Virus record (IMG/VR): IMGVR_UViG_3300045988_154248
Length of the DNA: 64,000 nt
Source of the DNA: a virus
Direction: 5' to 3' (one strand)
The translations under genes and the position numbers were made by a program. A model generated the notes under the pieces. The model had not been told where the DNA came from, did no database searches, and worked only from the letters and a program-made list of their open reading frames with translations. Shown piece after piece: positions 3,906-50,944 of the stretch (positions are counted from its first letter, which is position 1; every line of letters starts with the position of its first letter).

Positions 3906-4223
3906 GTAATCTTCATAAACTCTATACATTTCCTCATATTCTTCCGACAAACTTCTCAATACATCTTTATAGATGTAAAGTTGATTATTTTCTAAATAGT
4001 TACGCAATCCTGTTTCCGTATCAAAGAATTCCTCAACTGCTGTCGAATTCGCCCATCTGTCAAAAGATACCAACGCAGCTACTCTTAACATCCATTTTCC
4101 ATTTGTTCCGCTATGTGGTTCTACAACCAGGAATAAAATTGTATCTGTTTTCGCTTGTAGTATGGCTTCGTATTCATCGACTTCATAACCGTTATCTTTG
4201 AACCAATTCTTTATAATATCCAT
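3897..4223 (-). CDS. hypothetical protein, C-terminus altered by IS insertion
   Basis: 108-aa ORF. The last codons (YYK-stop) come from the IS end. Without the IS the frame would stop at GAAGATTAA. Confidence 0.6.
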   Translation of the reverse strand: MDIIKNWFKDNGYEVDEYEAILQAKTDTILFLVVEPHSGTNGKWMLRVAALVSFDRWANSTAVEEFFDTETGLRNYLENNQLYIYKDVLRSLSEEYEEMYRVYEDYYK

Positions 4224-7540: not shown

Positions 7541-8398
7541 TCATTTCATTGTCTCAATTTTTATTAATGGTTTTATTCTTCTCCTACCAACATTTTTCCC
7601 TTGTCGTTTAAGTAACGATAAAGTTTTATTATATGTTTCAACATCTATAATTGGCTCAAAATTTCCTTTATAAGTTTCTCCACAAAAAATATTGTACCCA
7701 CAATATTGTGTTCGTGTAAGAATTTTTTGAACACTATAAGCTGTTGGGACTTTGCCTCTCTTACCTTTAAATCCTCTTTCTCTTGCTTCTTTCGCAACTT
7801 CTGATAAATTTTTTCTTAACGAATACTCAGAAAAACAAAAACGCACATATTCTGCTTCTTTTTTATTGATTTTAAATGAATCCTTTCCATCTAAATCATA
7901 TCCTAATATTTCAGAACAAGTACGTTTTCCTTGTGCGGCTCTCTCTGCCATAGCTGCACTAACTCTTTCACTTGTTAATTCTCTTTCTAGCTGTGCGAAT
8001 ACACCAACAATGCCAATCATTGCTCTACCCATTGGAGTAGATGTATCAAAAGCTTCAGTATATGAAACCATAGATATATTCCATTGTTGGAATTTTTCCA
8101 TTGTCGAATATAAATCCGATACACTTCTTGTAAATCTACTAAGTGCCCAAAATAAAACTAAATCAAATTTCCCATTTTTTGCATCATATAATAATCTATT
8201 TATATCTGGTCTATGTTCAATATCCTTTCCTGAAATTCCTTTGTCTGCATACAAATCATAAACATTATATTTCCGTTCCTCACACCATTTCCTAAGCGTT
8301 TTTTCTTGTGCATCTAAAGAATATCCTTCACGGACTTGATCGAGTGTGCTTACACGTATGTATATTGCTACTTGTTTTTTATTCTCCACATACAACAC
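7541..8398 (-). CDS. serine recombinase (resolvase/invertase catalytic domain plus recombinase domain; short form)
   Basis: N-terminal VAIYIRVSTLDQ...GYSLDAQ...DKGISG motif set. 285 aa, with no long C-terminal zinc-ribbon or coiled-coil region. Confidence 0.85.
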   Translation of the reverse strand: MLYVENKKQVAIYIRVSTLDQVREGYSLDAQEKTLRKWCEERKYNVYDLYADKGISGKDIEHRPDINRLLYDAKNGKFDLVLFWALSRFTRSVSDLYSTMEKFQQWNISMVSYTEAFDTSTPMGRAMIGIVGVFAQLERELTSERVSAAMAERAAQGKRTCSEILGYDLDGKDSFKINKKEAEYVRFCFSEYSLRKNLSEVAKEARERGFKGKRGKVPTAYSVQKILTRTQYCGYNIFCGETYKGNFEPIIDVETYNKTLSLLKRQGKNVGRRRIKPLIKIETMK

Positions 8399-8400
8399 CT

Positions 8401-8718
8401 CTATTCCTTTTTTATTCCAAATTCAAAACAAGCAGCACATCCCATTTTATCAGGGTACATGCCATCATTGTCAGCCACAATTTCCCATCCATATTCAAAA
8501 GATACTATGTTATCATATACTGCTTGTGGATTATCTTCATTACCATCCCAATCCGTAACTGGATTATCTCCATTTTTTAATGCTTCTAAATCACATATTA
8601 ACCTTCCATGTTTCCCATATTCATATCCGCTATGTAAATAATCGACTTTACCATTTTTATTAAAAACAACTAAAGTTAACCCACCGCCATTATCCTCAAT
8701 AACTTCATATTTCCTCAT
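8401..8718 (-). CDS. hypothetical protein
   Basis: ORF track gives 8401..8736 with a TTG start. ATG at 8718 lies 9 nt after GGAGGGG. Confidence 0.6.
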   Translation of the reverse strand: MRKYEVIEDNGGGLTLVVFNKNGKVDYLHSGYEYGKHGRLICDLEALKNGDNPVTDWDGNEDNPQAVYDNIVSFEYGWEIVADNDGMYPDKMGCAACFEFGIKKE

Positions 8719-24670: not shown

Positions 24671-25204
24671 TTAATAGTCATAACCACAAGATAATGAAAT
24701 CATTGATGCATTACCAGAAAATTCCCAATGAGCATAAGTTGTGTGTTCTTTCCATTCCGGTTCTGACCGTCCAAAATCTCGTGCTTCCATTCCAGGAATT
24801 AATCGCTGCCCAGATCCACCGCCTTTCTTTCTTGTAACCGCGCTTTTCATCATTTTATCGAAATTTTCCGGTTTGCATTCTCTGATTGGGTGAACTGATT
24901 TCGCTTTACTTTCTTTATGAGCTTTCCAGATGCTGCACGCAAGTTTCCGTTCGAACTCATTCTTGCTATAGGTGGCGATTATATCTCGTTCCCATTCGTT
25001 ATAAACCGAATTGAAAGCCCACACATACAAATAAACGCGGTTTCCTTTATAGTTTGGGAACGAGTCACACACGTACCGAACGCCGTCATATTGAGTATAT
25101 ACGGCATTTACTGGGAAAAGTTTTCCCGCCATTCTGAATTGTTTTCTTGCAATGAGATAACGCGTATCTGAGCATTTTTTAAACACTTCTGAAATTTTAC
25201 ACAT
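24671..25204 (-). CDS. hypothetical protein
   Basis: ORF track gives 24671..25234. ATG at 25204 (MCKISEVF) follows GAGGG. Confidence 0.6.
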   Translation of the reverse strand: MCKISEVFKKCSDTRYLIARKQFRMAGKLFPVNAVYTQYDGVRYVCDSFPNYKGNRVYLYVWAFNSVYNEWERDIIATYSKNEFERKLACSIWKAHKESKAKSVHPIRECKPENFDKMMKSAVTRKKGGGSGQRLIPGMEARDFGRSEPEWKEHTTYAHWEFSGNASMISLSCGYDY

Positions 25205-25258
25205 GGTTTTCCCTCTTTTCTTTCTTATTTTCATTGCAAAGCTGGAAATTTAAGTACG

Positions 25259-25285
25259 CAAAAAAGACGTTGCACACACAACGCC
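25259..25285 (-). terminator. intrinsic terminator
   Basis: The minus RNA reads GCGUUG-UGUGUG-CAACGUC followed by UUUUUU. Confidence 0.6.
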
Positions 25286-25323
25286 CATTTTCGGGTATCA
25301 AAAAGCACTTAAAAAAATAAGTG

Positions 25324-25359
25324 TTGAAAATCGCCCGTAACTTTTGACGGTCACGGGCG
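25324..25359 (-). terminator. intrinsic terminator-like hairpin
   Basis: CGCCCGT...ACGGGCG forms a 7-bp stem followed by AUUUUC on the minus strand, just after the stop of 25380..26342. Confidence 0.5.
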
Positions 25360-25379
25360 ATTATATTGCGATTGCGTGG

Positions 25380-26342
25380 TTATTTCTGTTTCTTCTGTTC
25401 AAAAGTCAGATTGCCCTTAATTTCGAACTTTCCACCCTGTTTTTTCAGGACGATTGCTTTTACAAGAACTCGTTCAAATTTCTTGTAGTTCACTGTCTTG
25501 AACAGGAATTTTCCGTTTCCGTCCTGTTCAATGTTGAAACCAGAAACAAGGGTCGCCAGGTTATTTAATTCCGTTGGGGTCATTCTGATGGAACGAGACG
25601 CAAGTACCTTATTCCCGTCCGATTTTGTGACAGAAAACCGCGAAAACAGGTTTTCCATCTCAGCGCGGAATGACAGATAAAGTTTTTTTGTATCTTCCGT
25701 TGTTTCACCTCCTGTTCGTCCTAATTCGTGACGGTAAAGCTGGGCACTCTGTAAAGGTTTTTCAAAAACCTTTTTCCAGTCCGAAACGTTGCCGGACGCA
25801 AGCGAACAGAACAGTTCAAAATGGAGCAGCTGTTTTCCAGTTCCTTTTACCTGGGCAACGTATACCGGAGAAATAATACCGGAAATTTTTTCGCACGCGT
25901 CACGCAACGCGTCACGGCGGTTAGTGAGATCCATTCTCACATCTTCTGCCGTCAGAAGAAACGCGCGGAGCTTTAAATATTCCGTACTTTCTTCCGTATC
26001 CAATTCGAATACATCACGCTTGTTTTCAAGCTCTTTTGCGCGCGCTTCAGACTTTTCAACCGTTTTCAGAAAACTTTCTAACTTGTTTTCTGAAGCGGTT
26101 TTTTCCTGTTCCATACAAGCCGCGAAAACGGCGTTTTTGTAAAGAACCGGAGTGAGAACTACACCGACAAGTGAAAGTTCATTAAAATCGGTATAAGACC
26201 GTGAGATAATCCCGTCCGAAACGAGATCGAAAACAACGCGGTTATAGACAAGCGCGGTTTCATCTACTACAAGACGAGTTCCGGAAACAAGGTTGATAGA
26301 AGCAAGTTCGTTGCGGGTTACTTTCAGAATGTTATACATCAT
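25380..26342 (-). CDS. orphan 320-aa protein, first gene of the leftward arm
   Basis: ORF track gives 25380..26426. ATGATG at 26342 follows AAGGAGG. GC-enriched. No motif recognised. Confidence 0.7.
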   Translation of the reverse strand: MMYNILKVTRNELASINLVSGTRLVVDETALVYNRVVFDLVSDGIISRSYTDFNELSLVGVVLTPVLYKNAVFAACMEQEKTASENKLESFLKTVEKSEARAKELENKRDVFELDTEESTEYLKLRAFLLTAEDVRMDLTNRRDALRDACEKISGIISPVYVAQVKGTGKQLLHFELFCSLASGNVSDWKKVFEKPLQSAQLYRHELGRTGGETTEDTKKLYLSFRAEMENLFSRFSVTKSDGNKVLASRSIRMTPTELNNLATLVSGFNIEQDGNGKFLFKTVNYKKFERVLVKAIVLKKQGGKFEIKGNLTFEQKKQK

Positions 26343-26343
26343 G

Positions 26344-27010
26344 GTTTTTTCCTCCTTAAATGCCGTGTACTTGACACGGCGAAACAAAATTGATAAGATA
26401 TGTATTGAAACAATTTCGGCGCTCATAAACTCACGTTTTCGTCAATATTTCAAGCGGGCGACTTGAGCGCCACGACTTACGGGAAACGTCCCGCGACGTA
26501 TTTTAATGGAACACGTAAACCGAAAAGGGAGCGACTTGAGCGCCACCACTTTTTTTATTGCAATTTGTAGGGAGCGACTTGAGCGCCACCGCTACGAAAA
26601 GGTGTTTCGTTCGAATGTAGTCTGTATATCCCGTGTACAGGTGGGAAAACGCATATCATCACACGCGCCCACTTTGTTTACCACTCAAGTGCTGCTGATT
26701 TTAAGCAGATATTTGAAGACGGTTACTCGTGTTACCCGTTCGCGTACATCTCACGACGTTCGCGCGCTCAACTGGGAATAGTCCTATTCGGTATGGACTT
26801 TGTACCGGGCAAATTAGTTTGCCGAACTCATGCAAGAATAGAATGCAGATGGATTTTCCGCCATCCGCGGAGCGGTTACACGTCCGCGTAATAGATACTG
26901 AGACTAAGGTTGACAGTTACAATCCCGGGCGGTGTCCGGTATACAGAAGAAGAAACACCGCGAACGAAACGACCGTTCGCGTACCGTTTAGGCTATCACC
27001 CTTTCGGTAA
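26344..27010 (-). ncRNA. long GC-rich structured leader or ncRNA candidate
   Basis: No credible ORF on either strand. Much higher GC than surroundings. Many 5-7 bp GC stems, for example 26362-26380, 26866-26888 and 26960-26980. A G-U versus A-C asymmetry favours the minus strand. Confidence 0.4.
26453..26593. repeat. three direct copies of GCGACTTGAGCGCCAC (about 20-24 nt)
   Basis: Cores start at 26458, 26531 and 26574, so the spacing is 73 and 43 nt. Confidence 0.8.
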
Positions 27011-27022
27011 TTGTATTATCTC

Positions 27023-27087
27023 ATAAACATGCATAGATTGCAAGTGTTTTTTAGTGAAATTATACACAAATTATAAACATGCATAGA
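27023..27087. repeat. direct repeat ATAAACATGCATAGA x2
   Basis: Copies at 27023-27037 and 27073-27087 in the divergent control region. Each contains the ATGCAT palindrome. Confidence 0.7.
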
Positions 27088-27136
27088 ACTATTTTTAGTG
27101 CATATTGCTAGTTGATTAATTGTCGTTGTGTAATAT

Positions 27137-27208
27137 ACACAATAGATGCGGTATAAGTAATAGTATTATGCAGCATATTGGCAAATAGTAATATTACACA
27201 ATAGATGC
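27137..27208. repeat. direct repeat ACACAATAGATGC x2
   Basis: Copies at 27137-27149 and 27196-27208, upstream of the RHH gene. Confidence 0.7.
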
Positions 27209-27244
27209 AATAGTTTATTGTGCAAAGTGCTGAAAATAAAATAA

Positions 27245-27460
27245 TTGAAAGAAGGTATCATATTGTCAGAAACTAACGAGTCACAATTAAAAGCTGTCAG
27301 AAAATATAACTCGCAATGTAAAAGTGTCGCAATACGCTACACTCCAAAAGAATTATCAGAATTTGAAAGGTTAGAAAGATATATTTCAGAAAATAATGTA
27401 AATAAAGCCGAATATATTAAAAATTTAATAAAAGCAGATCTGGACAAAAAGGGCTATTGA
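27245..27460 (+). CDS. ribbon-helix-helix (CopG/Arc-like) DNA-binding protein
   Basis: VAIRYTPKELSEFERLERYISENNVNKAEYIKNLIKADL fits a beta-strand plus two-helix RHH pattern. It is the first rightward gene. Confidence 0.55.
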   Translation: MKEGIILSETNESQLKAVRKYNSQCKSVAIRYTPKELSEFERLERYISENNVNKAEYIKNLIKADLDKKGY

Positions 27461-27486
27461 CTGCAAAGTGTACCAGAATAGAAGGT

Positions 27487-27524
27487 TGACTATTGGTCAG
27501 TTTAGAATGACTATTGGTCAGTTT
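27487..27524. promoter_or_regulatory. tandem operator-like repeat TGACTATTGGTCAGTTT x2
   Basis: Copies at 27487-27503 and 27508-27524, a 21-nt period. Each contains the TGAC...GTCA dyad. Confidence 0.6.
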
Positions 27525-27530
27525 GTAAAT

Positions 27531-27670
27531 TAGGAATGATTACTATTATTGATTTTATGGAAATGTGAGGTTTAGTACTGGTAAACTTTTTGTTTAGTAT
27601 TTGTATATGTGGAAATTGTGGATAATGTGGAAAACTTATGTAGATAACTTGATAATAGTAATCATTCCTA
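27531..27670. repeat. 19-bp perfect inverted repeat bracketing the DnaA-box cluster
   Basis: TAGGAATGATTACTATTAT at 27531-27549 and its reverse complement at 27652-27670. Confidence 0.8.
27608..27634. promoter_or_regulatory. three tandem DnaA boxes (origin-like)
   Basis: TGTGGAAAT TGTGGATAA TGTGGAAAA. The middle 9-mer is the exact complement of the TTATCCACA consensus and the others have one mismatch each. AT-rich DNA follows. Confidence 0.65.
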
Positions 27671-27967
27671 TTTTCGATATATAAAATTTTTACATATGAC
27701 CTTACGTCACACTTTACCACCCTTTTTCAACTTGCCACCGGAACAGCGCGCGCCATGGTCAAAAATTTTTATTTTACCAAACAATAGAAAAAATTTTATC
27801 TATTGTCAAAATATTTTAAATTGTACTGAAATTGTGTTATGCCATGTAAAATACCTGTTTTTCGGGGTAAAATGACGTTGTGATCTGTTTATTGTCTGAG
27901 TAGTCAGACGGGGGGTAGTTAAAATCAGCAAATTGTCTGAATTTTCTGAAATCTCACATAGCTGGTT

Positions 27968-28429
27968 CATCTACACACTAACTCCAAAATCCATCACTCC
28001 ACCCAATCTCCCTATCTCACCACCCTCCCATTCCACCCATCCAAAAACAATCCACATTTTACCTAATAATCAAGCCCAAAACCCCATCATATCACCATAA
28101 AACCCCATATCGTACCCCTTATCGTAAACCTCAGTAATCAAGCCTTAAAATCACTCTGCCCTTCAAATTTTACTCTCCACTTTTTCACCCTCAATCAAAA
28201 ATACCCCATATAAATTCTGGCCTCAAACGATAAACATTTTACGGATTAAAAATTGCACTCTTCCTCTCTCCTTCACTATTTCAACACTCACCTATCTAAA
28301 CCATATCATATCATCACAAATCATCCTTACTATTGATCTAAGGACAAAACAGTATTATAATCAACCTAGAATCCATTCAAACACATACACCCTATAAACT
28401 GTCCACCAATACAAGAAAAGAGGAAAATC
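27968..28429 (+). other. G-depleted, C/A-rich untranslated tract
   Basis: About 460 nt with only about 20 G, and none at 27968-28073. CCC runs occur at 28002-28038. No ORF. Ends at the SD of 28430..28948. Confidence 0.7.
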
Positions 28430-31452: not shown

Positions 31453-32610
31453 ATGTCAGATACTAAACATTATTTAAAATTACTACTCACGAATATTCAT
31501 AAAAAATATTCACTAAAAGATACCATTGATAAAAACGAATATTCTTTTACTATGATGAAACTAAGTCAAAACAACATAACTCCGCAAGAGGCTTTAATGT
31601 GTTATTTAGATCAAGAATCGTCAATTCTCGACCCATCGAATGAAGTGTTGGACAATACAATTTCTTTATTGAATTATCTTTTATCTTATATTACTGCAAA
31701 TTTTAATATAAAAACCATTGCAGGTTGTTACAAAATTACGAATAGAGAAACTGGTGAAATATACATTGGAGAAACAGTCAATATGTTTGCAAGGTTCTCG
31801 CAACATATCAGTATGTTGTATAACGGTACACATCATTGCATAGCTCTTCAAGAATCATTTAATAAAAACAAAGACATTGACCGTTTTTCTTTTAAGCCTA
31901 TTTTCTTTTTTGAAACATCCTATTACAAAGGCAGAGCAGTAACAAAAACAAGAACACTATATTTAGAAGCTGCATATTATTTAACTTATCGTTATAAAAA
32001 ATATGTTCTTTATAATACGAAAAATCCATTTTTAGAACTTAAAAATAATGAAAAGAAAACTTTTGATAATTACGAAGTCATCTATAAAGATGTTTTACAG
32101 ATGATATATGACGATCCTGACAAAATTTTATCAGAAAATTTAAAAGAAAAAGTTAGAAAAAATTTGAATGAAAAGGGAATTCATGAAACGCCTGAGACAA
32201 AACAAAAAAAGAAACATAGTCATTCAAAAAGCAGAGAATATATTGGTGTTGATACGGAAAATGGAACATATGAATATAACAATAAAACATATCCACTGTG
32301 TCCTGGTGAAAAATATAGTTTTACGAGTTTGACTGAATCACTTTGTGATAATGGAATTCTACTTTCAAGAGAAGAACATGATTATTTGTTATTCAAAAAG
32401 ACATTGGTGTACGAAAATCTATTAAATGTGGATAACAGCAATAGGTTTTTTGCCAGGGAATCTTCTTTAACTGACGGATATTTAGAATTAAAGCATTTTA
32501 AAACATGCAATTCTGATTTATATAGATATCAAATAACAGAAAAAGGTAAAGATAGAATTTTAGAAATTATCAATCAGTATGGAAAAGATTACTTTAAAAG
32601 ACAAGATTAG
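31453..32610 (+). CDS. GIY-YIG homing endonuclease-like protein
   Basis: [28 protein letters not shown]...LQESF...R..YLEAAY is the GIY-YIG motif set. Confidence 0.75.
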
Positions 32611-33659: not shown

Positions 33660-34060
33660 ATATTAATACAAATATTATAGATTTTGTATGGAATTTTAAA
33701 AATTTTAAACTTAATGATTTTGGATTAGATCCTGAATATAACATGTTATGTGCGCCAGTTTGTGAATGCGGATGTGGTGAGAAGATGAATGTTTTACTTG
33801 AAAGTGATGATGACATCTATGATTTTTGTTATGAGCTTGTAGATACTCAAGATTGCAATTATTGTGTTGCTTTTGCAATCAATGAAAAGAATGAAATGCT
33901 TGGTGCAATTAAATATGATGGTGAAATTCATTGTATTAAATTGAAAAACATTTCTGAAGACTATCTTCAAGTTGGTGGCATGTTTAATGATTTAGAGCTA
34001 CATCAGTATGGAATTATTGTCTGTGTTGGCGATGGAGAATATAAGATTTTGGAGGAATAA
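33656..34060 (+). CDS. hypothetical Cys-rich protein
   Basis: ORF track gives 33632..34060. ATG at 33656 follows GGAGG. Confidence 0.55.
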   Translation: MNINTNIIDFVWNFKNFKLNDFGLDPEYNMLCAPVCECGCGEKMNVLLESDDDIYDFCYELVDTQDCNYCVAFAINEKNEMLGAIKYDGEIHCIKLKNISEDYLQVGGMFNDLELHQYGIIVCVGDGEYKILEE

Positions 34061-34067
34061 AAAATAT

Positions 34068-36581
34068 ATGGCAGGTATTAATGTACCTCAGTATGAGATT
34101 TTTAAAATTGGAACAGATAAATTAAAATATTCTAAATGGAATTTGAATATTGATAAAAAAGAAGCATTTAAATACCAAGAATCTGTTTCATTATTTGAAG
34201 GTCAGCAATTTCGAATTATGGCAAAGAAAATCATGAAGAAAGCAAAATGGAAATGTGATTTTTCGAAACTTTTTATGCAAGTCGTTATTGATCAGAAAAC
34301 AGATTTTGCAAGAGCGACAAACAGAAAAGGTGTTACTGTAAATGGTATAAATTATAGACGTTTTGTTGGAACAACAGGTGGTTTGAAGAATAATACTCTT
34401 CTATTTTGTAATTCGGAATACATAGATAAACTAAATGAATTATGTGAGTGTAGGCGAAACAAAGAAGTGCCATTAGTTCCAGCAAAATATGAAGCATATA
34501 AAGCGTTAACTTGCTCTGCATCGCAGCCAATTTGCGAACCACATGGAATTTTAGTTGTAAAAGATTGCATTACTCAATACGAAGATGATGTAATTTCTCT
34601 CGATAGTGGAGTTGGAGACGGTGAGCCAATTCGTGAAAAAAAACATAAAGTAATGGAAAATACAGTGTCTGATGGGTTTAATTTATGTACTATTGGATAC
34701 ATGCAAAGAGTTGCTGAATCTCTTGGATTAGATTATACTCCTGCAGGTGTATGTTTGCGAAATGCCTGGTTAAAAGGTATGCTCTATCCTTTCCCAATTA
34801 TAGAGTTTATTGAAAAATATAATGGTGGGAATTATTTTATCAAGGATATTTGGGGTAATGTGCAGGACATTCGAGAGTGTGAAATGATTCTCACGGAATC
34901 TTCATTGAAATTATGGTCGGCATATGAAAGTATTGACGAATATATTGCAGCATATAGAGAGTGTGGATATGAATTTGCAGTTACGAAAATTTCTCCTCAT
35001 ATCTTAGATGAAGAACGTGAATTAAATTATCAATATTTACAGTCTTATGAATTCACTGATGATGATATTAAAGAATTGTGTAATCCTACCATTCAGCATT
35101 TAAAAGATGCGATGTGTGGAAACTACGAATCCACTATTAAATTTCTTGGAATTAATGAAAATACAGACGTGAATTCATGGCAACGTGCATTATATACAAG
35201 CCAATATATGCTTGGCGATCCGTATATTATCGATTCAACTCATAGGTATATTAAGAAGAAAATAAATGATGCAAAAATTGGTAAATTAATTGTAAATGGT
35301 AATTATCAAATTGCTAGTGGTGATCCGTTTGCGTTAATGCAATCAATTTGTGGCCTAGAAATAACTGGCTTATTAAAAGCTGATCAATGCTACTCAAAAT
35401 TCTGGATTGACAAATCTGTAGATTCTGTAGTTATCTTTCGAAGTCCAATGACTTCTCACAATAATATTCGAAAATGCAATGTAATTTCAAATGAAGAGTG
35501 TTTGTATTGGTATCAGTATATGGATACTATTATGATTATCAATGCATGGGATTCTTTTTGTGTGGCGGAAAACGGTTGTGATTGGGATGGCGATCTTTTA
35601 TATTCAACCAATAATAAAGTCTTACTTCGTTGTTTTAGAAAACTATTAGCAATTGAATGTGTTCAAAGAAAAGCCAATAAGATTATTATTAATGAAAAAG
35701 AAGTCAAAAAAACAAATAAAAACGGCATGGGAAATCAGGTTGGACAGATTACAAACCGTGTTACTTCGATGATCGAAGTTTTGTCACGATTTGAAGAGGG
35801 GTCTAATGAATATAATGATTTATTATATCGTATTGAATGTGGACAGCTTCACCAACAGGATGAATTGGATAAAATCAAAGGAATTATTGCAAAGCCAATG
35901 GCAAAATATTGGTATAATCTTGGTGCTTGTAAAGATAATCATTATTTACAATCAATTTGTGCTTATCGAAAACCGTATTTTATGATCTATATTTATGATG
36001 AGATTAAACGTAAGTATAAGAACTATATCAAGGAAAGCGAGATAAAATGCGCTGCATTATATGATTGCAGTATTCAAGATTTATATAGTAAAAAGGATAA
36101 TTTAACTGACGAACAAAAAGATTTTTTATTTTGGTATGAGTATAAAATGCCGGTTGGCATTGGAGCTTGTGCAATGAATAAAATCTGCTGGTATGTTGAA
36201 AGTCAATTAGACGGATATAAATCACAATTACATCATGATTCTACTTTTGATTACAATCGTTTAAAAGTTAAACGTCGATGTACAGAAGAACATCGGAAAG
36301 CTTTACATGATCTTGAACAAGAGTATCGTGAATGTATTAAGGAGTATAAAGCAAACAGGTCTTCCGACAAAGAACAATCAAATAATAACAGAAAATATTT
36401 ATGCGAAAAATTTAGGCAAGCGGCTATTGAACTTTGCCCAAATGATGAAGAGCGCATGAATATTATCCTTGATATCACCTATGGTTATAAGGGAAATCGA
36501 CAGTTTTGTTGGGACTGTATTGGTGACTTGCTTATTAAACGTTTGGAAGAAATGGAGAATGAAAATGTATATACTGAATGA
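34068..36581 (+). CDS. YonO/RdRP-like single-subunit RNA polymerase (double-psi beta-barrel, DxDGD)
   Basis: 837 aa. FRSPMTSHNNIRKC...AENGCDWDGDLLYS matches the R-x-P ... DxDGD catalytic arrangement of YonO and eukaryotic-type RdRPs. ATG at 34068 follows GGAGG. Confidence 0.65.
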   Translation: MAGINVPQYEIFKIGTDKLKYSKWNLNIDKKEAFKYQESVSLFEGQQFRIMAKKIMKKAKWKCDFSKLFMQVVIDQKTDFARATNRKGVTVNGINYRRFVGTTGGLKNNTLLFCNSEYIDKLNELCECRRNKEVPLVPAKYEAYKALTCSASQPICEPHGILVVKDCITQYEDDVISLDSGVGDGEPIREKKHKVMENTVSDGFNLCTIGYMQRVAESLGLDYTPAGVCLRNAWLKGMLYPFPIIEFIEKYNGGNYFIKDIWGNVQDIRECEMILTESSLKLWSAYESIDEYIAAYRECGYEFAVTKISPHILDEERELNYQYLQSYEFTDDDIKELCNPTIQHLKDAMCGNYESTIKFLGINENTDVNSWQRALYTSQYMLGDPYIIDSTHRYIKKKINDAKIGKLIVNGNYQIASGDPFALMQSICGLEITGLLKADQCYSKFWIDKSVDSVVIFRSPMTSHNNIRKCNVISNEECLYWYQYMDTIMIINAWDSFCVAENGCDWDGDLLYSTNNKVLLRCFRKLLAIECVQRKANKIIINEKEVKKTNKNGMGNQVGQITNRVTSMIEVLSRFEEGSNEYNDLLYRIECGQLHQQDELDKIKGIIAKPMAKYWYNLGACKDNHYLQSICAYRKPYFMIYIYDEIKRKYKNYIKESEIKCAALYDCSIQDLYSKKDNLTDEQKDFLFWYEYKMPVGIGACAMNKICWYVESQLDGYKSQLHHDSTFDYNRLKVKRRCTEEHRKALHDLEQEYRECIKEYKANRSSDKEQSNNNRKYLCEKFRQAAIELCPNDEERMNIILDITYGYKGNRQFCWDCIGDLLIKRLEEMENENVYTE

Positions 36582-37616: not shown

Positions 37617-38585
37617 CTGGCAGATATAATAGTTTGCCAGTATTATCGCGGGATATGCTGGATCGGTTCCACGAGAGATTCATGTTCTCTAAAGCTACGT
37701 TCGACTCGTAGTCCCGCAACTCGTGGCATAGCACAGATAGATGCGTGTGAGCGTATTAAAGGCGAATTTACAACTCGTCGCCATGAAAATTGGTCAATCT
37801 ATGCAAAACTAACATCCCAGGCACTCAAAAAGTGCTGTTTCATACCGGTAAAACGAGTAAGTCCTGTGTGGAAATAGTGTCAGGAAATAGGGAGTAACAA
37901 GGTGATTCAGGGGCAACCGCTGAGAATCATTTTTCTGCGCAACAGAATAGCTCACGCGAACCTATGAAGATATGATGGGGAATTAGGAGGATATATAGTG
38001 CGAGTCCTTATTAGACAAGTGCGATGTCCATTTGGGTAAGTGAATTGGTAGAGATGCCAAATTAGCTTATGCAGGATGCGAGTAGGGATTATAACCGAAA
38101 GCTACGAAGGCGTGATGGATTTTGTTATCCAAAAGATAACGAAACATCTGGTGCAGCGCGTCTTCTGTATTCAATTTCGTTTCTATTAATTAGTATATTC
38201 AGGAAGAATGTAAAAATTGGTTTGATGCAAAAGGTAAACAAATTATAAAGCGAAAGTCTGTACCTCTGTATGGTGTAAGCAGCCAAAATGTGTAATCTCT
38301 TTTGAGGTAATACACACACTGAAAGATACGCAATATCTGGATGTGTTAAGCGGATTCTGCACAGTTCTCTTAGCGGAGATTTATAGCACGGCAGTGTTAA
38401 TGGAACGATGAAACTTGAGTAGTCATACAGCAAAGAAGATAAGCCTCTTCTCAAAAGGCGGTTGTGGAAGATACTATATGTGTGCGCAAGCAACATATAG
38501 TGGATAACCGAAGAAAAAATAATGTCGGTAAAGGTTTCTGAAAATACGTATAATCTCAGCGTATTTATTTTGCTACTTCTGTAGC
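37617..38585 (+). ncRNA. candidate giant structured ncRNA (GOLLD/ROOL-class context)
   Basis: About 1 kb without credible ORFs and GC-enriched. Hairpins at 37617-37640, 37695-37711 (T-loop-like TTCGACT), 38124-38140 and 38474-38500 (with an internal GCAA tetraloop). Directly abuts a tRNA in a phage. Confidence 0.4.
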
Positions 38586-38590
38586 ATTAT

Positions 38591-38664
38591 TGCGGTGTAG
38601 CTCAGTTGGTGAGAGCATTCGGCTTATATCCGAACGGTCGTGGGTTCGAGTCCTACCACCCCAA
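38591..38664 (+). tRNA. tRNA-Ile (anticodon TAT)
   Basis: Cloverleaf read by hand. D arm GCTC/GAGC, anticodon arm TTCGG-CTTATAT-CCGAA, T arm GTGGG-TTCGAGT-CCTAC. One C-C mismatch in the acceptor stem. No encoded CCA. Confidence 0.7.
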
Positions 38665-38705
38665 CTATTTATCTTTGTTGTATACAAAGAAATTTAAAAC
38701 GAAAG

Positions 38706-38927: not shown

Positions 38928-40139
38928 ATCAAAACTAAATTTTATGATACTAACGCTCTTCTATTACTACAGGATAAAATTTTAGAAGACAGTTTTTACA
39001 TTAGTTCTACTACTCTAGAAGAACTAGAAAACATTAAAACAAGTTCTCGAAAAGATGAAGAGACAAAATACAAAGCAAGAAAATTATTACATATTTTAGA
39101 TGAAAATGATGATAAATATAAAGTTGTTATTACCACCAAAGATATTATCTCAATTATAGATGCTTTTGGATTAGAAAACACTCCTGATAATCAGATTTGT
39201 GCATGTGCATATTCTACTCCTGATATTTTATTTATTACAAACGATATTTCTTGTAAAACCATTGCAAAATGGATTTTTGGATTAGATGTTTCCAGTATTT
39301 CTACTATTCAAGAAGATCTATATAAAGGATATAGAGATATTACATTGTCTGAAAATGATATGGCATATTTCTATGAACATTTAAATGAAAATGTTTTCAA
39401 TTTATTAACAAATGAATATGTTATTATTCGAAATGCAGACAATGAAGTTGTAGATAAATTAAAATGGGATGGCGGAATGTATCAGACTATTAGAAATAAA
39501 CCATTTAAATCTAATATGTTTGGTACATTAAAACCATTAGACGACATTCAATCATTCGCTATGGATTCGATTAATACAAATGACATTACCGTATTGTATG
39601 GTAAAGCTGGTAGTGGTAAAACTACTCTTCCGCTTAATTATATCATGCAAGAAATCGAAAAAGGAAAATATAAAAAATGCTATATGGTTTACTCTTATGA
39701 ACCATTAAAAGGAGCAAAAACTCTCGGCTACGAAAAGGGTGATCATGTCACAAAATTGATCTATTCTGCATCTATCGGAAATATTTTAGCATCAAAATTT
39801 GGCGATCTACAGCAAGTTGAATACATGCTTGATCGTGGAATGCTAGATATTATTCCAACTGCAAATATTCGAGGTGTCGAATTTGAATCTGATAGCATCT
39901 GTATGGTTACAGAAAGTCAGAATTTGGATGTTTATACTCTAAAAACAATTATTCAACGTTGTAAATCTGGATGTAAACAAATATATGAGGGTGACATTAT
40001 TGAACAAAAGGATACAAACGTCCAAAATGTTGGTATTAATAGACTGATTGACGTATTCAAAGGACATAAAAGCTTTGGGTGTGTCAAACTTAAAAATAAT
40101 TACAGATCTGAATTGAGCGAATTAGCAGATTTGATGTAA
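38928..40139 (+). CDS. PIN-domain plus PhoH-like ATPase (PhoH2 architecture)
   Basis: PhoH Walker A is LYGKAGSGKTT. The upstream 139 codons encode a PIN-like domain (KFYDTNALL...EELE...TNDIS) with no ATG, GTG or TTG. ATC at 38928 sits 9 nt after GAAAGGTGG. Confidence 0.7.
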   Translation: MKTKFYDTNALLLLQDKILEDSFYISSTTLEELENIKTSSRKDEETKYKARKLLHILDENDDKYKVVITTKDIISIIDAFGLENTPDNQICACAYSTPDILFITNDISCKTIAKWIFGLDVSSISTIQEDLYKGYRDITLSENDMAYFYEHLNENVFNLLTNEYVIIRNADNEVVDKLKWDGGMYQTIRNKPFKSNMFGTLKPLDDIQSFAMDSINTNDITVLYGKAGSGKTTLPLNYIMQEIEKGKYKKCYMVYSYEPLKGAKTLGYEKGDHVTKLIYSASIGNILASKFGDLQQVEYMLDRGMLDIIPTANIRGVEFESDSICMVTESQNLDVYTLKTIIQRCKSGCKQIYEGDIIEQKDTNVQNVGINRLIDVFKGHKSFGCVKLKNNYRSELSELADLM

Positions 40140-40370: not shown

Positions 40371-41360
40371 ATGAGCCAAAAAAGAATTTATTCAAAAGAT
40401 GAAACTGAATTAATGCTTGAAATGTACAAAGATGGAGAAACATATTCGGACATAGGGAAAGCTTTACATACTAAAGCACAAAAAGTTTCAAAATATTTAA
40501 AAGAACTGGGGTATGGCGTCAGGCCACATAACCAATTAAAAAATCATGAATATTTATCTGCATCACGAAAAAACTCTTTAAATGAAAATTTCTTTAAAAC
40601 TATTGATACAGAATCAAAGGCCTATTGGCTTGGATTTTTATATGCAGATGGATATATATGTAAAAAGTATGATAAATCGGGGCATGAAAAAGGTGGATCA
40701 GTAGAGTTAACTTTAAAATCAGATGATAAATATCATATTCAAAATTTTTTAAGTGATATACAATCTACTGCGCCGATTGCAGATAGGAAAATAAAATTAA
40801 ATGGTAAAGAATATTTTGCAAACAGAGCTTGTATAACGTCTATTAAAATGGTGAATGATTTAATTAGTCATGGATGCGTAGAAAATAAATCTTTGATTTT
40901 AGAACCACCTACCTCTGTTCCTGATGGTTTAATTTCGCACTTTATACGCGGATACTTTGATGGCGATGGATGTGTATGTTTTTATCCTGAAAACTATTCA
41001 TATACGTATAGTATATTGGGTACTAAAGCATTTCTTGAGTTTGTTGCAACCAAAGCACAATTACCGTCTTTTAATATTATCTCTTTTGAACACAAAAAAT
41101 GTTATGAATTAAGAACTCATTCCAAAAAATCAGCAGAATTATTTCATAATTACATTTATAAAGACAAAACAATTTATCTCGAAAGAAAATATCAAAAATC
41201 TCTTGCGATGATGAAGTGGTGTTTTATGGAAGATAATAGAACTGAAACACAGAAAATAGCAGATTTATTAGACGATATGTTATTTTTTGATGATAGTAAT
41301 ATAGAAAATTTTATAAAGTATGTCAAGAACACCCGTGACTTTAGTCATGGGATGAATTGA
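40371..41360 (+). CDS. LAGLIDADG homing endonuclease (double-motif)
   Basis: WLGFLYADGYI and FIRGYFDGDGCV motifs. Confidence 0.85.
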   Translation: MSQKRIYSKDETELMLEMYKDGETYSDIGKALHTKAQKVSKYLKELGYGVRPHNQLKNHEYLSASRKNSLNENFFKTIDTESKAYWLGFLYADGYICKKYDKSGHEKGGSVELTLKSDDKYHIQNFLSDIQSTAPIADRKIKLNGKEYFANRACITSIKMVNDLISHGCVENKSLILEPPTSVPDGLISHFIRGYFDGDGCVCFYPENYSYTYSILGTKAFLEFVATKAQLPSFNIISFEHKKCYELRTHSKKSAELFHNYIYKDKTIYLERKYQKSLAMMKWCFMEDNRTETQKIADLLDDMLFFDDSNIENFIKYVKNTRDFSHGMN

Positions 41361-41453: not shown

Positions 41454-41855
41454 ATGGAAGTGACTCATGGTCGTGGATATGTATATTCGATACAATATCA
41501 TATTGTTTGGTGTGTTAAATACAGACACAAAATAATTACAGAAAAAATAGAGAATAGATTAATAGAGATACTTAATAAAATAGCTGATGATAATGGATTT
41601 CAAATATTAGAATGTAATACAGATAAAGACCATATTCATCTTCTCGTTAATTGTTCTCCGCAACATTATATCCCAGACATGATAAAAGCATTAAAAGGCG
41701 TGTCAGCAAGGTTACTTATGAAAGAATTTGGAGAAGAATTAAAAAGAAAATTATGGGGTGGTCACTTGTGGAATCCATCATATTTCGTGGCAACCGTATC
41801 AGAAAATACAGAAGAACAAATTAGAAAATATATTCAAAATCAGAAAAGAAAGTGA
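41454..41855 (+). CDS. tnpA: IS200/IS605 Y1 (HUH) transposase TnpA
   Basis: [10 protein letters not shown]...HIHLLV...Y motif pattern. 133 aa. Confidence 0.85.
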
Positions 41856-41865
41856 GGTGAAGTCA

Positions 41866-42969
41866 GTGGAAAAAGCTTATAAGTACAGGATTTATCCAAA
41901 TAAAAAGCAGAAAGAAATAATTGCAAAGACTTTTGGGTGTTGCAGATTTATATATAATAAGTATCTTGCAAAGCGAATTGAAATGTATGAACAGAATAAA
42001 GAAACATTTTCATATGTTCAATGTGCAAATGATATGAAGAAACTAAAATCAGAGTTAGAATGGCTTAAAGAAGTCGATTCTACTGCTCTTCAATCTTCAC
42101 TTAAAGATTTAGATTCAGCTTATCAAAAATTCTTTAAAGAACACACAGGATATCCTAAGTTCAAATCAAAGAAAACACATAGATTTTCTTATAAATCAAA
42201 GTGTGTAAATGGCAATATTCAGTATTGTGATAAATATATTAAGTTACCTAAACTTGGAATGGTAAAAACGAAAAACAAGTTAGTACCAAAAGGAATGATT
42301 CTTAATGCTACTGTGTCACAAGAACCAAGTGGCAAATATTATGTGTCAATTTGTTGTACTGATATTGATATTCAACCACTAAATAAAACTGGTAATAACA
42401 TTGGTATTGATTTAGGCATTAAAGAATTTTGTATTACAAGTGATGGAGAATTAATTCCAAATCCACATTACTTAAAGAAGTCTTTAGATAAACTTGCTAA
42501 GTTACAAAGAGAATTATCTCGAAAATCAAAAGGTAGTTCTAATCGTAATAAAGCAAGAATAAAGGTTGCAAGACTTCAGGAACATATTGCAAATCAGAGA
42601 AAAGATTTCTTGCATAAGTTATCTACTGAAACAATCAGAAGTAATGATATTGTATGTATCGAAGACCTTCAAGTAAAGAATATGATTAAAAATCATAAAC
42701 TTGCACAGTCTATCGCAGATGTATCATGGTCTGAATTTGTAAGACAACTTGAATATAAAGCAAATTGGTATGGTAAACAAGTTGTGAAAGTAGATAAATT
42801 CTATGCAAGTTCTCAAACTTGTAATGTATGTGGGTATATAAATAAGGATACAAAAAATCTTTCAGTAAGAGAATGGGAATGTCCTTGTTGTCATACACAT
42901 CATGACAGAGATATGAACGCAGCCATCAATATTCTTAATGAAGGATTGAGAATATTAGAAGTGGCATAG
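41866..42969 (+). CDS. tnpB: TnpB (OrfB) RNA-guided nuclease family protein
   Basis: GTG start giving [15 protein letters not shown]. RuvC-like IGIDLG...IEDL. Zinc finger CNVCGY...CPCCH. The ORF-track start at 41758 overlaps tnpA. Confidence 0.85.
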
Positions 42970-48106: not shown

Positions 48107-49159
48107 TTGTCAAAAGAAAAAATTACAAGAGTGAAATATTTCACTCCTGACAAAGAGAAATATATTTATGAAGAAAATTGGAAGAAATATAAAAAATATT
48201 TACAGTCCAATATTATTAAAAATAAAGATGTAAAAGATACGACATACAAGAGATATGAAGCCTTATTCCGACATTTTCTTATATGGCTTGGTGAAAGTTA
48301 TGGTGAACTTGATTTATATTCTGATGAATTTATGGAAAATGCCGTAGATATAATGGAAGGATACATGCTATTTTGTCAAGAAGTATTACAAAACCATAAA
48401 AAAATTATTAATATGAAAGTATCTGCAGTAAGTTCTTTTTATATTTGGTCAATGAAACGTGGTTTTGTTAAATATCACCCATTTGATGGAAAACTTGATC
48501 GCATGAAAAAGGCAAACGAGGAACAGATTTTAAATCATTATTTTCTTTCTGATGAGCAAATCAATCAGATCAGAAATGATTTATACCAAACGGAGAATAA
48601 TAAATGGAGCATACAAGATCAATTATTATTTGAAGTTTCTTTATTTTCCGCTAACCGGTTAGGAGCATTGGAGAGATTAACAATTTCTTCTCTTGATCTT
48701 GACAATATGGTATTTGAAGGAATTAGAGAAAAGGAAGGTTATAGAGTCGAAGTGTCATTTGATGATACATGTCGAGATATGATCGAAACATGGTTGTCTA
48801 TGCGAAAGGACGATTATGATCATCTTGAATGTGATGCCTTATTTATACATAAATATAAGGATGAATGGAAGCCATGGACAAGAAGTATGATTACTGATCG
48901 AATGCATAAATTCGGAGAAATTATTGGAATAGAAGATTTTCATCCTCACTGCATGAGAAAAACAGCGATTAATAAAATATATGAAGATACTGGCGATCTT
49001 AATCTTGCATCACAATGGGCTAATCACAAGTCAAGCGCAACCACTCAAGCTGCATATCTGAAACCAGTTTCTAAATCAGAACTTAGAGACAAACTAAAAT
49101 TATTAAAATTCAAGCAGCAGGAAATCGAAAAAGAAGTAAAAATGCAAGAAAATAATTAG
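48107..49159 (+). CDS. tyrosine recombinase / phage integrase
   Basis: ...SANRLGAL..., HPHCMRKTAIN, WANHKSSATTQAAYL form the R...HxxR...H...Y pattern. TTG start lies 7 nt after AAAGGAG. Confidence 0.85.
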   Translation: MSKEKITRVKYFTPDKEKYIYEENWKKYKKYLQSNIIKNKDVKDTTYKRYEALFRHFLIWLGESYGELDLYSDEFMENAVDIMEGYMLFCQEVLQNHKKIINMKVSAVSSFYIWSMKRGFVKYHPFDGKLDRMKKANEEQILNHYFLSDEQINQIRNDLYQTENNKWSIQDQLLFEVSLFSANRLGALERLTISSLDLDNMVFEGIREKEGYRVEVSFDDTCRDMIETWLSMRKDDYDHLECDALFIHKYKDEWKPWTRSMITDRMHKFGEIIGIEDFHPHCMRKTAINKIYEDTGDLNLASQWANHKSSATTQAAYLKPVSKSELRDKLKLLKFKQQEIEKEVKMQENN

Positions 49160-49966: not shown

Positions 49967-50944
49967 ATGGACTATGTAGTAAAAAGCCAGAGTGCAAAGA
50001 ACTTTACTAAAGATATCGTAAAAGGAAAATACAGTATGAAACACAAGTTTCAACGCCAGGAAAATCAGTGGGGCAATCGTCAGAAAAGTTTACTGATTGA
50101 CTCTATGCTTCGTCCGTATCCAATCGATCCAATTAGATGCGAAGTCGGATCTGACGATGTAAGAAGAATTTTTGATGGCGTTCAGCGCGCTACCACAGTA
50201 AGAGACTTTTTTAAGAAAGATGGTTTTAGATTGGCTAAAAATTTAAAACCAGTTACAGTTGATGGCGAGGTATATGAAATTGCTGGTAAAAAATATGCAC
50301 AGCTCGATGAAGCCGTACAAGATAAGCTGAATGATTATGAGATGACAATCTATGTGTTTACTGATTGTACTGGAGAAGATATTCGAGAAATGTTTACTCG
50401 TCAGAACAATGGTAAACCATTGAACAATACTCAAAAACGTACAGCAATCGAGAGTGAAAAAGTAAGTGATGTTATCTTTAATTTTGCAGATCATGAGTTC
50501 TTTGAGAAAGTCCTTACTGATGCACAATATAAGAAAGATGTTCAGCGTGATCTGATCCGCGAAACCCTTATGCTGATTAATACAAATGAAGAAAATGATT
50601 TTACATCATTTAGAGCGAAAGATATCGACAGTTTTGTTGTTTGGTATGATGAAAATATCAATGCTACTGATATCAGTATATTAACAGATGTATTAGATAC
50701 TTTCAATACAGGAGATGAAGTAATCAAGGTAAAATCTACTTCTATTCCAATGATCCTGTATGGCGGTTATAAATGTATTAAAGACGGAAAAGATTTTAGA
50801 AAATTCGAAGCTGCAGTAAATGAGTTTGTTGAGAATTATGATTCTAACGAAGCATATAAACAACTTGTACAATCTGGTACTACTGCTTCTGCTGGTGTTA
50901 AAGCTCGTCTACAGTATTGGAATAACGTCGTAGATAATTTATAA
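49967..50944 (+). CDS. DUF262 (ParB-like/GmrSD N-terminal type) domain protein
   Basis: FQRQENQW...QKSLLIDSMLRPYPIDPI...FDGVQRATT fits the DUF262 motif order. No DUF1524/HNH half is present. Confidence 0.7.
   Translation: MDYVVKSQSAKNFTKDIVKGKYSMKHKFQRQENQWGNRQKSLLIDSMLRPYPIDPIRCEVGSDDVRRIFDGVQRATTVRDFFKKDGFRLAKNLKPVTVDGEVYEIAGKKYAQLDEAVQDKLNDYEMTIYVFTDCTGEDIREMFTRQNNGKPLNNTQKRTAIESEKVSDVIFNFADHEFFEKVLTDAQYKKDVQRDLIRETLMLINTNEENDFTSFRAKDIDSFVVWYDENINATDISILTDVLDTFNTGDEVIKVKSTSIPMILYGGYKCIKDGKDFRKFEAAVNEFVENYDSNEAYKQLVQSGTTASAGVKARLQYWNNVVDNL

Follow-up and report, generated by a model that had tools for sequence, protein, structure and literature searches.

A lineage-restricted structured leader RNA with a predicted antisense promoter in the early region of a large human-gut phage

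Countertranscript control is known from plasmids and phages, for example CopA/CopT of R1, RNA I/RNA II of ColE1, RNAIII of pIP501, CopG together with RNAII of pMV158, and sar/ant of P22. The RNA II of ColE1 is about 555 nt long. The protein operators of MS2 and PP7 and the iron-responsive element (IRE) have a short upper stem, a single-base 5′ bulge, and an invariant loop. The locus described here resembles both kinds of system in part. It lies in a 64,000-nt stretch of DNA (the window) from the IMG/VR record IMGVR_UViG_3300045988_154248, which belongs to a human-gut phage of about 125 kb. The minus strand of nt 26343–27012 encodes a structured, previously undescribed leader RNA, about 0.65 kb long and lineage-restricted. 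The leader belongs to the first leftward early transcription unit, adjoins the DnaA-box origin region, and is co-transcribed with an orphan open reading frame (ORF) of 320 residues, ORF320.

The leader fold is supported by covariation. Relatives were gathered in three ways, via the protein, via an 18-nt invariant motif, and via the neighbouring gene, giving 10 distinct leaders. RNAalifold places 135 pairs in them, with compensatory changes in 41. In the edited structure the local hairpin of repeat copy 2 (see below) was restored and a pseudoknot was added; it holds 121 pairs in 21 helices, with 98.6% of the cells standard-paired. Both sides change in 40 of these pairs, versus 2–8 when the 3′ partners are slid by 1–3 columns, and none of 500 column shuffles reached the observed values. 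The leader also contains invariant blocks of 19–39 nt. Since the adjacent ORF shows a synonymous divergence (dS) of 0.5–1.9 between the same genomes, these blocks reflect selection and not recent common ancestry. A first reading of the DNA, made without database searches (the sequence-only reading), had proposed a covariation analysis and a comparison with Rfam. The former bears out the fold, while the latter assigns it to no family: the leader matches nothing in Rfam 15, which includes GOLLD, ROOL, T-box, riboswitches, and put/antitermination RNAs. At gathering threshold the whole window yields GOLLD at nt 38105–38562 and tRNAs only, and nt 26200–28200 at E ≤ 10 yields noise only, such as mir-1473 at 22.5 bits versus a gathering score of 95.

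The structured RNA is encoded on the minus strand. The consensus energy is −144.1 on the sense (ORF) strand, with a covariation term of 16.8, versus −122.5 and 8.7 on the antisense strand, and the cells of the sense structure hold 137 G-U versus 6 A-C combinations. The strand assignment follows from these G-U counts together with a minus-strand promoter with operators. This early leftward promoter is of the sigma-70 type (TTGCAA-17-GATAAT with TG, nt 27015–27043, minus strand), and its position is kept in relatives with a different sequence. The transcript is predicted to start near nt 27008–27012. Two 15-bp direct repeats, ATAAACATGCATAGA (repeat family D9), lie at nt 27023–27037 and 27073–27087, one copy between the −35 and −10 hexamers and the other upstream, and are likely operators. 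At distant loci different sites, likewise repeated or palindromic, occupy the equivalent place. In every lineage a small divergent helix-turn-helix (HTH) gene and operator repeats stand beside the leftward promoter.

The base composition and the coding content also set this region apart, as the sequence-only reading had claimed in describing a GC-rich island with no plausible ORF upstream of an orphan protein. The GC content is 47.5% in nt 26343–27010 and 43.1% in ORF320, versus a window mean of 33.4% (sd 3.7%, all 668-nt windows). The leader ranks level with the insertion sequence (IS) element at 2.8–3.2 kb and is the top non-IS stretch of the window. No leader ORF is conserved on either strand across the 10 relatives, since the position, length, and strand of the ORFs vary among them.

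The 5′ end of the leader forms a hairpin, ACCG...CGGU (nt 26983–27008, minus strand, as are all leader elements below unless stated), which is kept among relatives although its stems are wholly different, namely UCAAU/AUUGA in locus L002, ACAAGGG/CCCUUGU in L009, and ACAAGUU/AACUUGU in L043. The next element is a promoter-proximal terminator-like hairpin with the stem GCGAACG/CGUUCGC (nt 26959–26981) and a U/C-rich tail (whole element nt 26940–26981), a possible attenuator. It is common to the other cassette types in L042–L045, and L001, L002, and L009 have an alternative 3′ arm. The GC-rich structured core, helices H1 to H14, spans nt 26596–26887, with compensatory changes in most helices. 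On the minus strand H1–H4 are followed by a pseudoknot module, H7–H14, repeat hairpin 3, an A7 tract, and repeat hairpin 2. Helices H17 and H18 (nt 26479–26516) lie between repeat copies 2 and 1, and two pairs of H18 show compensatory changes. Two of the helices singled out by the sequence-only reading are recovered here, GCGAACG/CGTTCGC in the terminator-like hairpin and GTGGG/CCCAC at nt 26641–26672, the latter with covariation support. In place of its third, CGCGGA/TCCGCG, covariation supports GCGG/CCGC (nt 26872–26887) and a GCGGAUGGC/GCCAUCUGC-type helix (nt 26845–26868).

The pseudoknot module, CGGUA-CAAAGUCCA-UACCG-AAU-AGGAC (nt 26781–26807, with stem H5 at nt 26789–26807), is invariant in the 10 relatives. 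The loop-to-3′ pairing GUCC/GGAC (H6) can only be inferred, because the bases that would form it never vary. The module is also found in two unrelated cassette types, where stem 1 covaries (CCGUG/CACGG in L042 and L044).

The 3′ part of the leader carries three repeat hairpins. The 16-mer GCGACTTGAGCGCCAC occurs exactly three times, at nt 26458, 26531, and 26574, the positions given by the sequence-only reading; no further copy with up to 3 mismatches exists in the 64 kb, where 0.12 are expected. The repeats extend to 27 nt, and their spacing is irregular, 73 and 43 nt. Copy 3 (H15, nt 26567–26595) has the loop CUCAAGU and a stem, GUAG.GG.GGCG, that covaries to GGAA.UG.AACG. Copy 2 (H16, about nt 26523–26553; nt 26523–26556 as a whole element) has an invariant A7 tract as its 5′ neighbour and UUUU as its 3′ neighbour; read on the plus strand, this region is a hairpin followed by U7, a possible end of an antisense RNA. 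Copy 1 (H19, nt 26452–26478), again with the loop CUCAAGU, covaries both in the upper stem (GGCG/CGCC to GGCA/UGCC and GACA/UGUC) and in the lower stem (AAGUCG to AAUGAG).

The alignment of 18 distinct copies gives a common architecture. Above a lower stem of 3–4 bp and a single-base bulge on the 5′ side come two more pairs, then a bulged U that never varies, an upper stem of 4 bp, and the 7-nt loop C-U-(C/U)-A-A-G-U. In these copies 97% of the cells are paired and both sides change at 6 of the 10 pairs; the upper stem GGCG/CGCU, for instance, becomes AACG/CGUU, GGCA/UGCC, or GACA/UGUC. The closing pair is G-C in nine copies, G-U in eight, and A-U in one. In the window G-C closes copy 1, and G-U closes the other two. 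The sequence-only reading had described these same closures and had argued from them for a minus-strand RNA, a claim that it tied to the conservation of hairpins and loop in related phages; strand and conservation both agree with it. A covariance model of the repeat finds exactly three copies per leader in the three close-family loci searched (the window, L005, and L009). It finds none elsewhere in the 64-kb window, in the distant loci of ORF320 homologues, or in the other cassette types (about 194 kb). The partial fifth copy suggested near nt 27731 matches neither this model nor GCGACTTGAGCGCCAC at up to 3 mismatches, and is attributed to chance.

In every repeat hairpin the 5′ half (GGCGCUCA) has a complement farther along the leader, the anti-repeat UGAGCGCCG (nt 26417–26425). 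Both RNAalifold and the single-sequence fold pair it with the 5′ half of repeat 2. In that pairing a single compensatory change occurs, in L009, and a single mismatch, in L005, along with several G-U pairs, so that an alternative fold is possible. The sequence ACUUGAG at nt 26684–26690 was considered as a receptor for the loops and was rejected, for it is part of the covarying helix H9 and is not conserved.

Just upstream of the Shine-Dalgarno (SD) sequence of ORF320 lies a further hairpin, GCCGUGU-CAAGU-ACACGGC (H21, nt 26362–26380). Its stem covaries from C-G to U-A through U-G, and distant lineages have UUGUC/GACAA or CUGUC/GGCAG. The loop and 5′ arm of H21 are the complement of a plus-strand −35 hexamer (nt 26371–26376) that belongs to a predicted antisense promoter, TTGACA-17-TAAGAT with TG (nt 26371–26399, plus strand). 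This is the top promoter match in nt 25150–27700, with 10 of 12 positions plus the TG, and the predicted start near nt 26406 is directed into the leader. TTGACA, the 17-nt spacer, and TAnnnT are present in all 10 lineages tested, and TG in eight. The consensus is kept also in L037–L040, whose proteins are 24–30% identical; in L038 the hairpin loop reads UCAAU with TTGACA intact. Within the close family the −35 hexamer, the TG, and positions −12, −11, and −7 are invariant, while positions −10 to −8 vary.

The CAAGU common to H21 and the repeats is best explained as the complement of the conserved −35 TTGACA. The sequence-only reading had counted H21 as a fourth member of the repeat family. The hairpin is indeed real, conserved, and placed just before the SD, yet it is no kin of the repeats: it does not match the covariance model at E ≤ 10, lacks the bulged U, and has a 5-nt loop. 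Its picture of four same-loop hairpins before one protein therefore holds for three of the four. That reading had also overlooked the antisense promoter, the pseudoknot module common to other cassettes, and the nature of the unit as an alternative cassette. With H21 real as RNA and the promoter conserved, the locus combines a sense hairpin with a convergent promoter.

These features lead us to propose, with an even chance of being right, that the 3′ part of the leader is under countertranscript control that sets ORF320 expression. The predicted convergent promoter stands between the hairpins and the SD, with its −35 inside the SD-proximal hairpin. Transcription from this plus-strand promoter would yield a countertranscript of about 100–150 nt complementary to repeat hairpin 1, to the anti-repeat, and probably to hairpin 2. 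A YUNR U-turn in the 7-nt loops could permit fast loop-loop kissing between leader and countertranscript. The pairing might then alter the fold, the stability, or the processing of the leader, and so decide read-through, cleavage, or translation and set the level of ORF320. YUNR, a U-turn motif, acts generally to speed kissing in antisense systems (PMC4485353, citing Franch et al. 1999). The sense loops (CUCA/CUUA) and the antisense loop (CUUG) fit this motif, so that recognition stem-loops of the sort described there are present. A conserved promoter on the opposite strand of the leader is indicated by consensus match and conservation. The control module at the 3′ end of the leader is conserved in all 10 examined loci of the ORF320 protein family.

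Several points weigh against countertranscript control. The existence of the countertranscript is itself predicted from promoter consensus. The candidate terminators for it, a 5-bp hairpin followed by AUUUU at nt 26486–26499 and the complement of copy 2 with U7 (about −7.8 kcal/mol), are weak or ambiguous. The predicted countertranscript would leave the SD uncovered, and the SD-proximal hairpin lacks a U tract, so that the model gives no specific route from pairing to expression. Three hairpins with one loop and one bulged U are not needed by a fully complementary antisense RNA, which suggests a common trans-acting ligand, for example a protein. Moreover, the antisense model covers only the 3′-most 150–200 nt, not the core of about 400 nt or the pseudoknot module; the core that it leaves unexplained favours an RNA with its own function. 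The antisense, RNA-protein, and own-function readings are not mutually exclusive.

ORF320 runs from nt 26342 down to 25380 on the minus strand behind the SD AAGGAGG (nt 26348–26354; whole unit nt 25380–26354) and encodes an orphan helical coiled-coil protein. A longer reading of 348 residues is not conserved, because its upstream AUG is absent in relatives. Two terminator-like hairpins follow in series (nt 25332–25359 and 25254–25286), in line with the two terminators noted in the sequence-only reading. ORF320 is a real gene under strong purifying selection. The ratio of nonsynonymous to synonymous divergence (dN/dS) is about 0.2 in the N-terminal half and 0.02–0.06 in the C-terminal half, and the N-terminal half evolves about 10 times faster. 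Residues 155–320 approximately (nt 25380–25880) are almost invariant, with dN of 0.01–0.04 at dS of 0.5–0.9; against L009 the dN of the C-terminal half is about 0.1 at dS of 1.3–1.9.

The protein has very few relatives, with 18 close ones among 5.8 billion clustered proteins and eight clusters in an exhaustive HMMER profile search of 1.84 billion representatives. It has no match in Pfam, PHROG, NCBIfam, PADLOC, or the PDB sequences, and tblastn against phages and plasmids was negative, with no homologue in 72,556 plasmids. It is thus the orphan that the sequence-only reading took it for. That reading had also called for a Foldseek comparison of an AlphaFold model. The first model had a predicted local distance difference test (pLDDT) score of 57, and Foldseek on this poor model was uninformative. 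With distant homologues added, the pLDDT rose to 79 with a predicted template modelling score (pTM) of 0.76. The second model consists of an antiparallel coiled-coil hairpin (residues 65–156), a helical bundle, and a helix/beta-hairpin/helix unit (residues 256–301) that contains the most conserved motif, RSIxMxxxExNNxAxxxSG. Foldseek with this model found nothing below E = 1e-3 in PDB or BFVD, and its top BFVD match was an uncharacterised 268-aa virus protein.

Binding of ORF320 to the repeat hairpins is possible. It is a credible though doubtful alternative that the three U-bulged CUYAAGU hairpins form an RNA-protein operator or ribonucleoprotein (RNP), bound by ORF320 or by a host RNA-binding protein and serving autoregulation or particle assembly. 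The hairpins have the short upper stem, invariant 5′ single-base bulge, and invariant loop of protein operators in three copies, with stems free to covary, and complementary antisense RNA would not require identical loops in three paralogues. They are also confined to the close ORF320 family, in which the C-terminal half of the protein is nearly invariant. However, ORF320 has no recognisable RNA-binding domain or fold match, its homologues at 24–30% identity have long leaders without the repeat hairpins, and the SD-proximal hairpin, the obvious translational operator, is of a different class.

The unit behaves like an exchangeable early cassette, one of several alternatives at this locus. Five IMG/VR contigs of 130–209 kb have the same origin region at 82–97% identity. 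Four of the five also have the leader promoter and the first 60–90 nt of the leader, and the leader core and ORF320 are absent from all five. In L042 and L044 about 900 nt of noncoding sequence holds a variant of the pseudoknot module (CCGUG/CACGG) and an 89-nt tRNA-like element, followed by an orphan 268-aa ORF. The tRNA-like element (L044 nt 2841–2929 and L042 nt 2817–2905, both minus strand) is called tRNA-Stop(tta) by ARAGORN and receives no Rfam tRNA call at gathering threshold; its variable arm is long and its T-loop reads GGTTCGAATCC. A diverged version without ARAGORN call lies at about nt 7800–7890 (minus strand) of L015. In L011, L015, and L017 the 30-nt module stands in another leader of about 900 nt, upstream of a homologue of the 268-aa ORF. 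This module, CGGUACAAAGUCCAUACCGAUAUAGGACUA (L015 nt 8380–8412, minus strand; also L011, L017, L042, and L044), occurs in leaders otherwise unrelated to that of the window; L015 shares about 50 further nt past it, up to GAACGGG, and GAACGG is repeated within both RNAs.

Other cassettes have other contents. In L043 and L045 a noncoding stretch of about 1 kb leads up to a 277-aa ORF. In L045 a perfect TTGACA-17-TATAAT (about nt 3555–3590, minus strand) lies about 100 nt into the leader common to the two, and this cassette type may have a second, internal start. At the equivalent locus of L041, which comes from a close relative, a Pistol ribozyme (RF02679, 69.5 bits, nt 3899–3965, minus strand) directly follows a 176-aa ORF and lies at the 5′ edge of a GC-enriched noncoding stretch of about 1.2 kb (nt 2670–3900, minus strand). 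A hammerhead-like string in L041, CUGAUGAGACAUGAGUCGAAAC near nt 2700–2720, was not confirmed by Rfam. By hhalign ORF320 shows no homology to the 259/268-aa family and a weak colinear match to the 277-aa ORF (E 0.016, probability 2.9%). A degenerate pattern search for the pseudoknot module gave no further cassette types.

The distribution of the window cassette is narrow. Blastn of nt 25200–27300 against 50,697 GenBank phages gave no match. An exact 18-mer scan of viral contigs and metagenomes gave about 13 true members, in human-gut phage contigs only, about half of the matches being due to chance, and the same 18-mer gave no true member in 185,579 reference genomes.

These cassettes bear on a rather unlikely explanation, that the leader is a stand-alone large noncoding RNA like GOLLD or ROOL, freed by processing, for example by RNase III on a sense-antisense duplex, while ORF320 merely shares its promoter. 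About 21 helices with long invariant single-stranded blocks suit such an RNA. The pseudoknot module recurs in cassettes whose ORFs have no detectable homology to ORF320, sister cassettes carry processing-type elements (the tRNA-like element before the ORF in L042 and L044, the Pistol ribozyme in L041), and the same phage encodes GOLLD beside a tRNA. The window, however, shows no clear sense terminator or known processing site between core and ORF. In some relatives the 5′ 150–200 nt are replaced or deleted and modules are shuffled among cassettes, which makes a modular leader likelier than one globular RNA. The very narrow distribution also speaks against it.

A broader proposal joins RNA and protein: leader and coiled-coil protein would be a dedicated RNA-protein system whose RNA is freed from the mRNA and acts jointly with the protein, and the cassettes would be diversified versions of one new class of module. 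The types would then be that of the window, that of L015 and L044 with the tRNA-like element, that of L043 and L045, and that of L041 with the Pistol ribozyme. We regard this as unlikely; if true, such modules might serve host takeover, anti-defence, or exclusion, for example.

It is very improbable that the leader is a processive antitermination element, like HK022 put or lambda nut, that modifies RNA polymerase to read through terminators in the leftward arm, both promoter-proximal and downstream ones. Its position would fit, at the head of an early transcript and with a terminator-like hairpin about 30–50 nt from the predicted start, and leftward genes continue beyond the two terminator-like hairpins of the unit. 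Against this, the leader resembles none of the antitermination RNAs in Rfam, the unit has terminators of its own and looks monocistronic, and relatives retain the downstream arm with unrelated RNAs in place of this one. The boxB-like sites considered in the sequence-only reading are also unsupported, since the loops are 7-nt CUYAAGU loops and not GNRA-like pentaloops, and a lambda-type nut/boxB with an N-like antiterminator agrees neither with these loops nor with the lack of an Rfam match. No boxA-like or N-like partner was seen, although an arginine-rich motif and boxA were not specifically searched for.

Still less credible is that the hairpins mimic the anticodon arm of tRNA-Leu (C32-U33-(C/U)AA-G37-U38, anticodon CAA or UAA), as decoys or ligands for a factor that recognises tRNA-Leu. 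The sole variable loop position toggles between C and U, giving both Leu anticodons, the loop of the phage's own tRNA-Leu(UAA), UUUAAGC, also has G37, and sister cassettes hold a tRNA-like element. But the upper stem has 4 bp and a bulge where an anticodon stem has 5 bp, a likeness to an anticodon loop is common to all YUNR heptaloops, neither ARAGORN nor Rfam detects a tRNA-like feature in the leader of the window, and no nuclease or enzyme emerged as a candidate.

The least likely reading takes the repeats as double-stranded DNA iterons and ORF320 as the Rep initiator that binds them; iterons bound by a replication protein were among the findings that, according to the sequence-only reading, would overturn its own. 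The DnaA-box cluster is nearby (about nt 27600–27635), and a small repressor, long leader, and antisense promoter are laid out like plasmid rep gene control (PMC4485353). Duplex iterons are ruled out, however, by stems that covary as hairpins and by a G-U closing pair in eight of the 18 copies, which would be an A-C mismatch in RNA from the opposite strand. In addition, the repeat spacing is irregular, ORF320 has no plasmid homologue and no Rep match in Pfam or NCBIfam, and it cannot be the initiator of this origin, since relatives with the same origin region have neither the repeats nor ORF320.

Next to the leader promoter on its right come a small divergent ORF, annotated as HTH_26 in relatives, then repeated sites and the DnaA-box-like cluster with TGTGGATAA. 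The origin-like region, nt 27487–27674, contains a perfect 17-bp tandem pair, TGACTATTGGTCAGTTT, and a 23-bp inverted repeat (nt 27527–27549 and 27652–27674) that brackets the cluster (TGTGGATAA, TGTGGAAAT, TGTGGAAAA), and the GC skew changes sign near it. Farther right, nt 27966–28073 (plus strand) form a 108-nt run without any G, within a C/A-rich stretch of about 275 nt (12 G) at nt 27966–28260. This stretch has a GC skew of −0.64, ATCACTCCACCC-type repeats, and no ORF, and stands at the start of the rightward arm.

The phage genome looks temperate and rich in mobile elements. It has a tyrosine integrase (nt 48107–49159, plus strand), a serine recombinase with Resolvase and Recombinase domains (nt 7541–8398, minus strand), a DDE transposase (nt 2685–3872, plus strand) within the other GC-rich island (2.5–4.0 kb), and a TnpB/IS605 OrfB gene (nt 41758–42969, plus strand; OrfB_IS605, Cas12f1-like TNB domain, and HTH). 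Further ORFs encode GIY-YIG (nt 31453–32610), LAGLIDADG (nt 40371–41360), PhoH (nt 39345–40139), and a protein with a GmrSD N-terminal domain (nt 49967–50944, plus strand). The GOLLD RNA (RF02032, plus strand) scores 193 bits versus a gathering score of 150, is followed 28 nt on by tRNA-Ile(tat) (together nt 38105–38665), and sits in a second GC-rich island. An 857-aa ORF without Pfam match (nt 34008–36581, plus strand) is presumably a YonO-type single-subunit phage RNA polymerase. More distant relatives are encoded by Clostridium phage c-st and by Bacillus phages, and closer ones, at 50% identity, by Enterocloster bolteae phages, among them PMBT24 (PMC11035940), in which the homologue is annotated as an RNA-dependent RNA polymerase. 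The ORF points to a Lachnospiraceae host; synteny with PMBT24 was uninformative.

Structured RNAs of more than 500 nt with comparable covariation are rare, and most of the known ones have been informative. The present leader stands at a regulatory hot spot, an operator-controlled early promoter beside the origin, and it belongs to one of several interchangeable cassettes of a long RNA plus an orphan protein. These have the pseudoknot module in common, and in some of them a ribozyme or a tRNA-like element is present. Should the antisense model hold, countertranscript control of the plasmid type would reach into the early region of a large Firmicutes phage. If the RNA functions by itself or with ORF320, it would be a new class of RNA or RNP. 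The system is tractable, since cultured host relatives exist, the RNA is of a size for cryo-electron microscopy, and the hairpins are well defined.

Among described RNAs, GOLLD (RF02032) and ROOL resemble the leader as GC-enriched, multi-helix RNAs of 0.5–0.7 kb with much covariation in an AT-rich phage genome, and a true GOLLD is present in the same genome. Unlike them, the leader matches no Rfam family, is fused as a 5′ leader to an ORF and is not a free-standing gene beside tRNAs, is modular with a variable 5′ part, and has a very narrow distribution.

The repeat hairpins resemble the MS2/PP7 coat-protein operators, the IRE, and lambda boxB in the short upper stem, 5′ single bulge, invariant loop, and occurrence in several copies upstream of a phage gene. 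They differ from all of these in the sequence and size of the loop, have no recognised cognate protein fold, and lie 110–250 nt away from the SD instead of on it. Type III toxin-antitoxin systems (ToxI/ToxN) likewise have repeated RNA elements upstream of a protein gene on one transcript in a mobile element, but here the repeats are dispersed and not tandem, and no terminator separates RNA and ORF. This assignment was rejected, for ORF320 has no ToxN/AbiQ-like match in Pfam or PADLOC and its predicted fold is an all-helical coiled coil.

The countertranscript systems of plasmid rep genes and phage antirepressors share several features of layout with this locus: a convergent promoter within a long leader, a small repressor gene with operators at the sense promoter, a target region with several stem-loops and 7-nt YUNR loops, and a unit that adjoins the origin. 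The leader length of about 650 nt is close to that of ColE1 RNA II. In contrast to those systems, the countertranscript here is predicted and would not cover the SD, no obvious attenuator terminator precedes the ORF, one loop and one bulge recur across three hairpins, and most of the leader lies outside the predicted target. ORF320 is neither a Rep nor an antirepressor of a known kind, and close relatives do without it. As a structured leader with probable antisense control, the RNA is of a known general kind, while its size, its modular make-up, and its cassette context are unusual.

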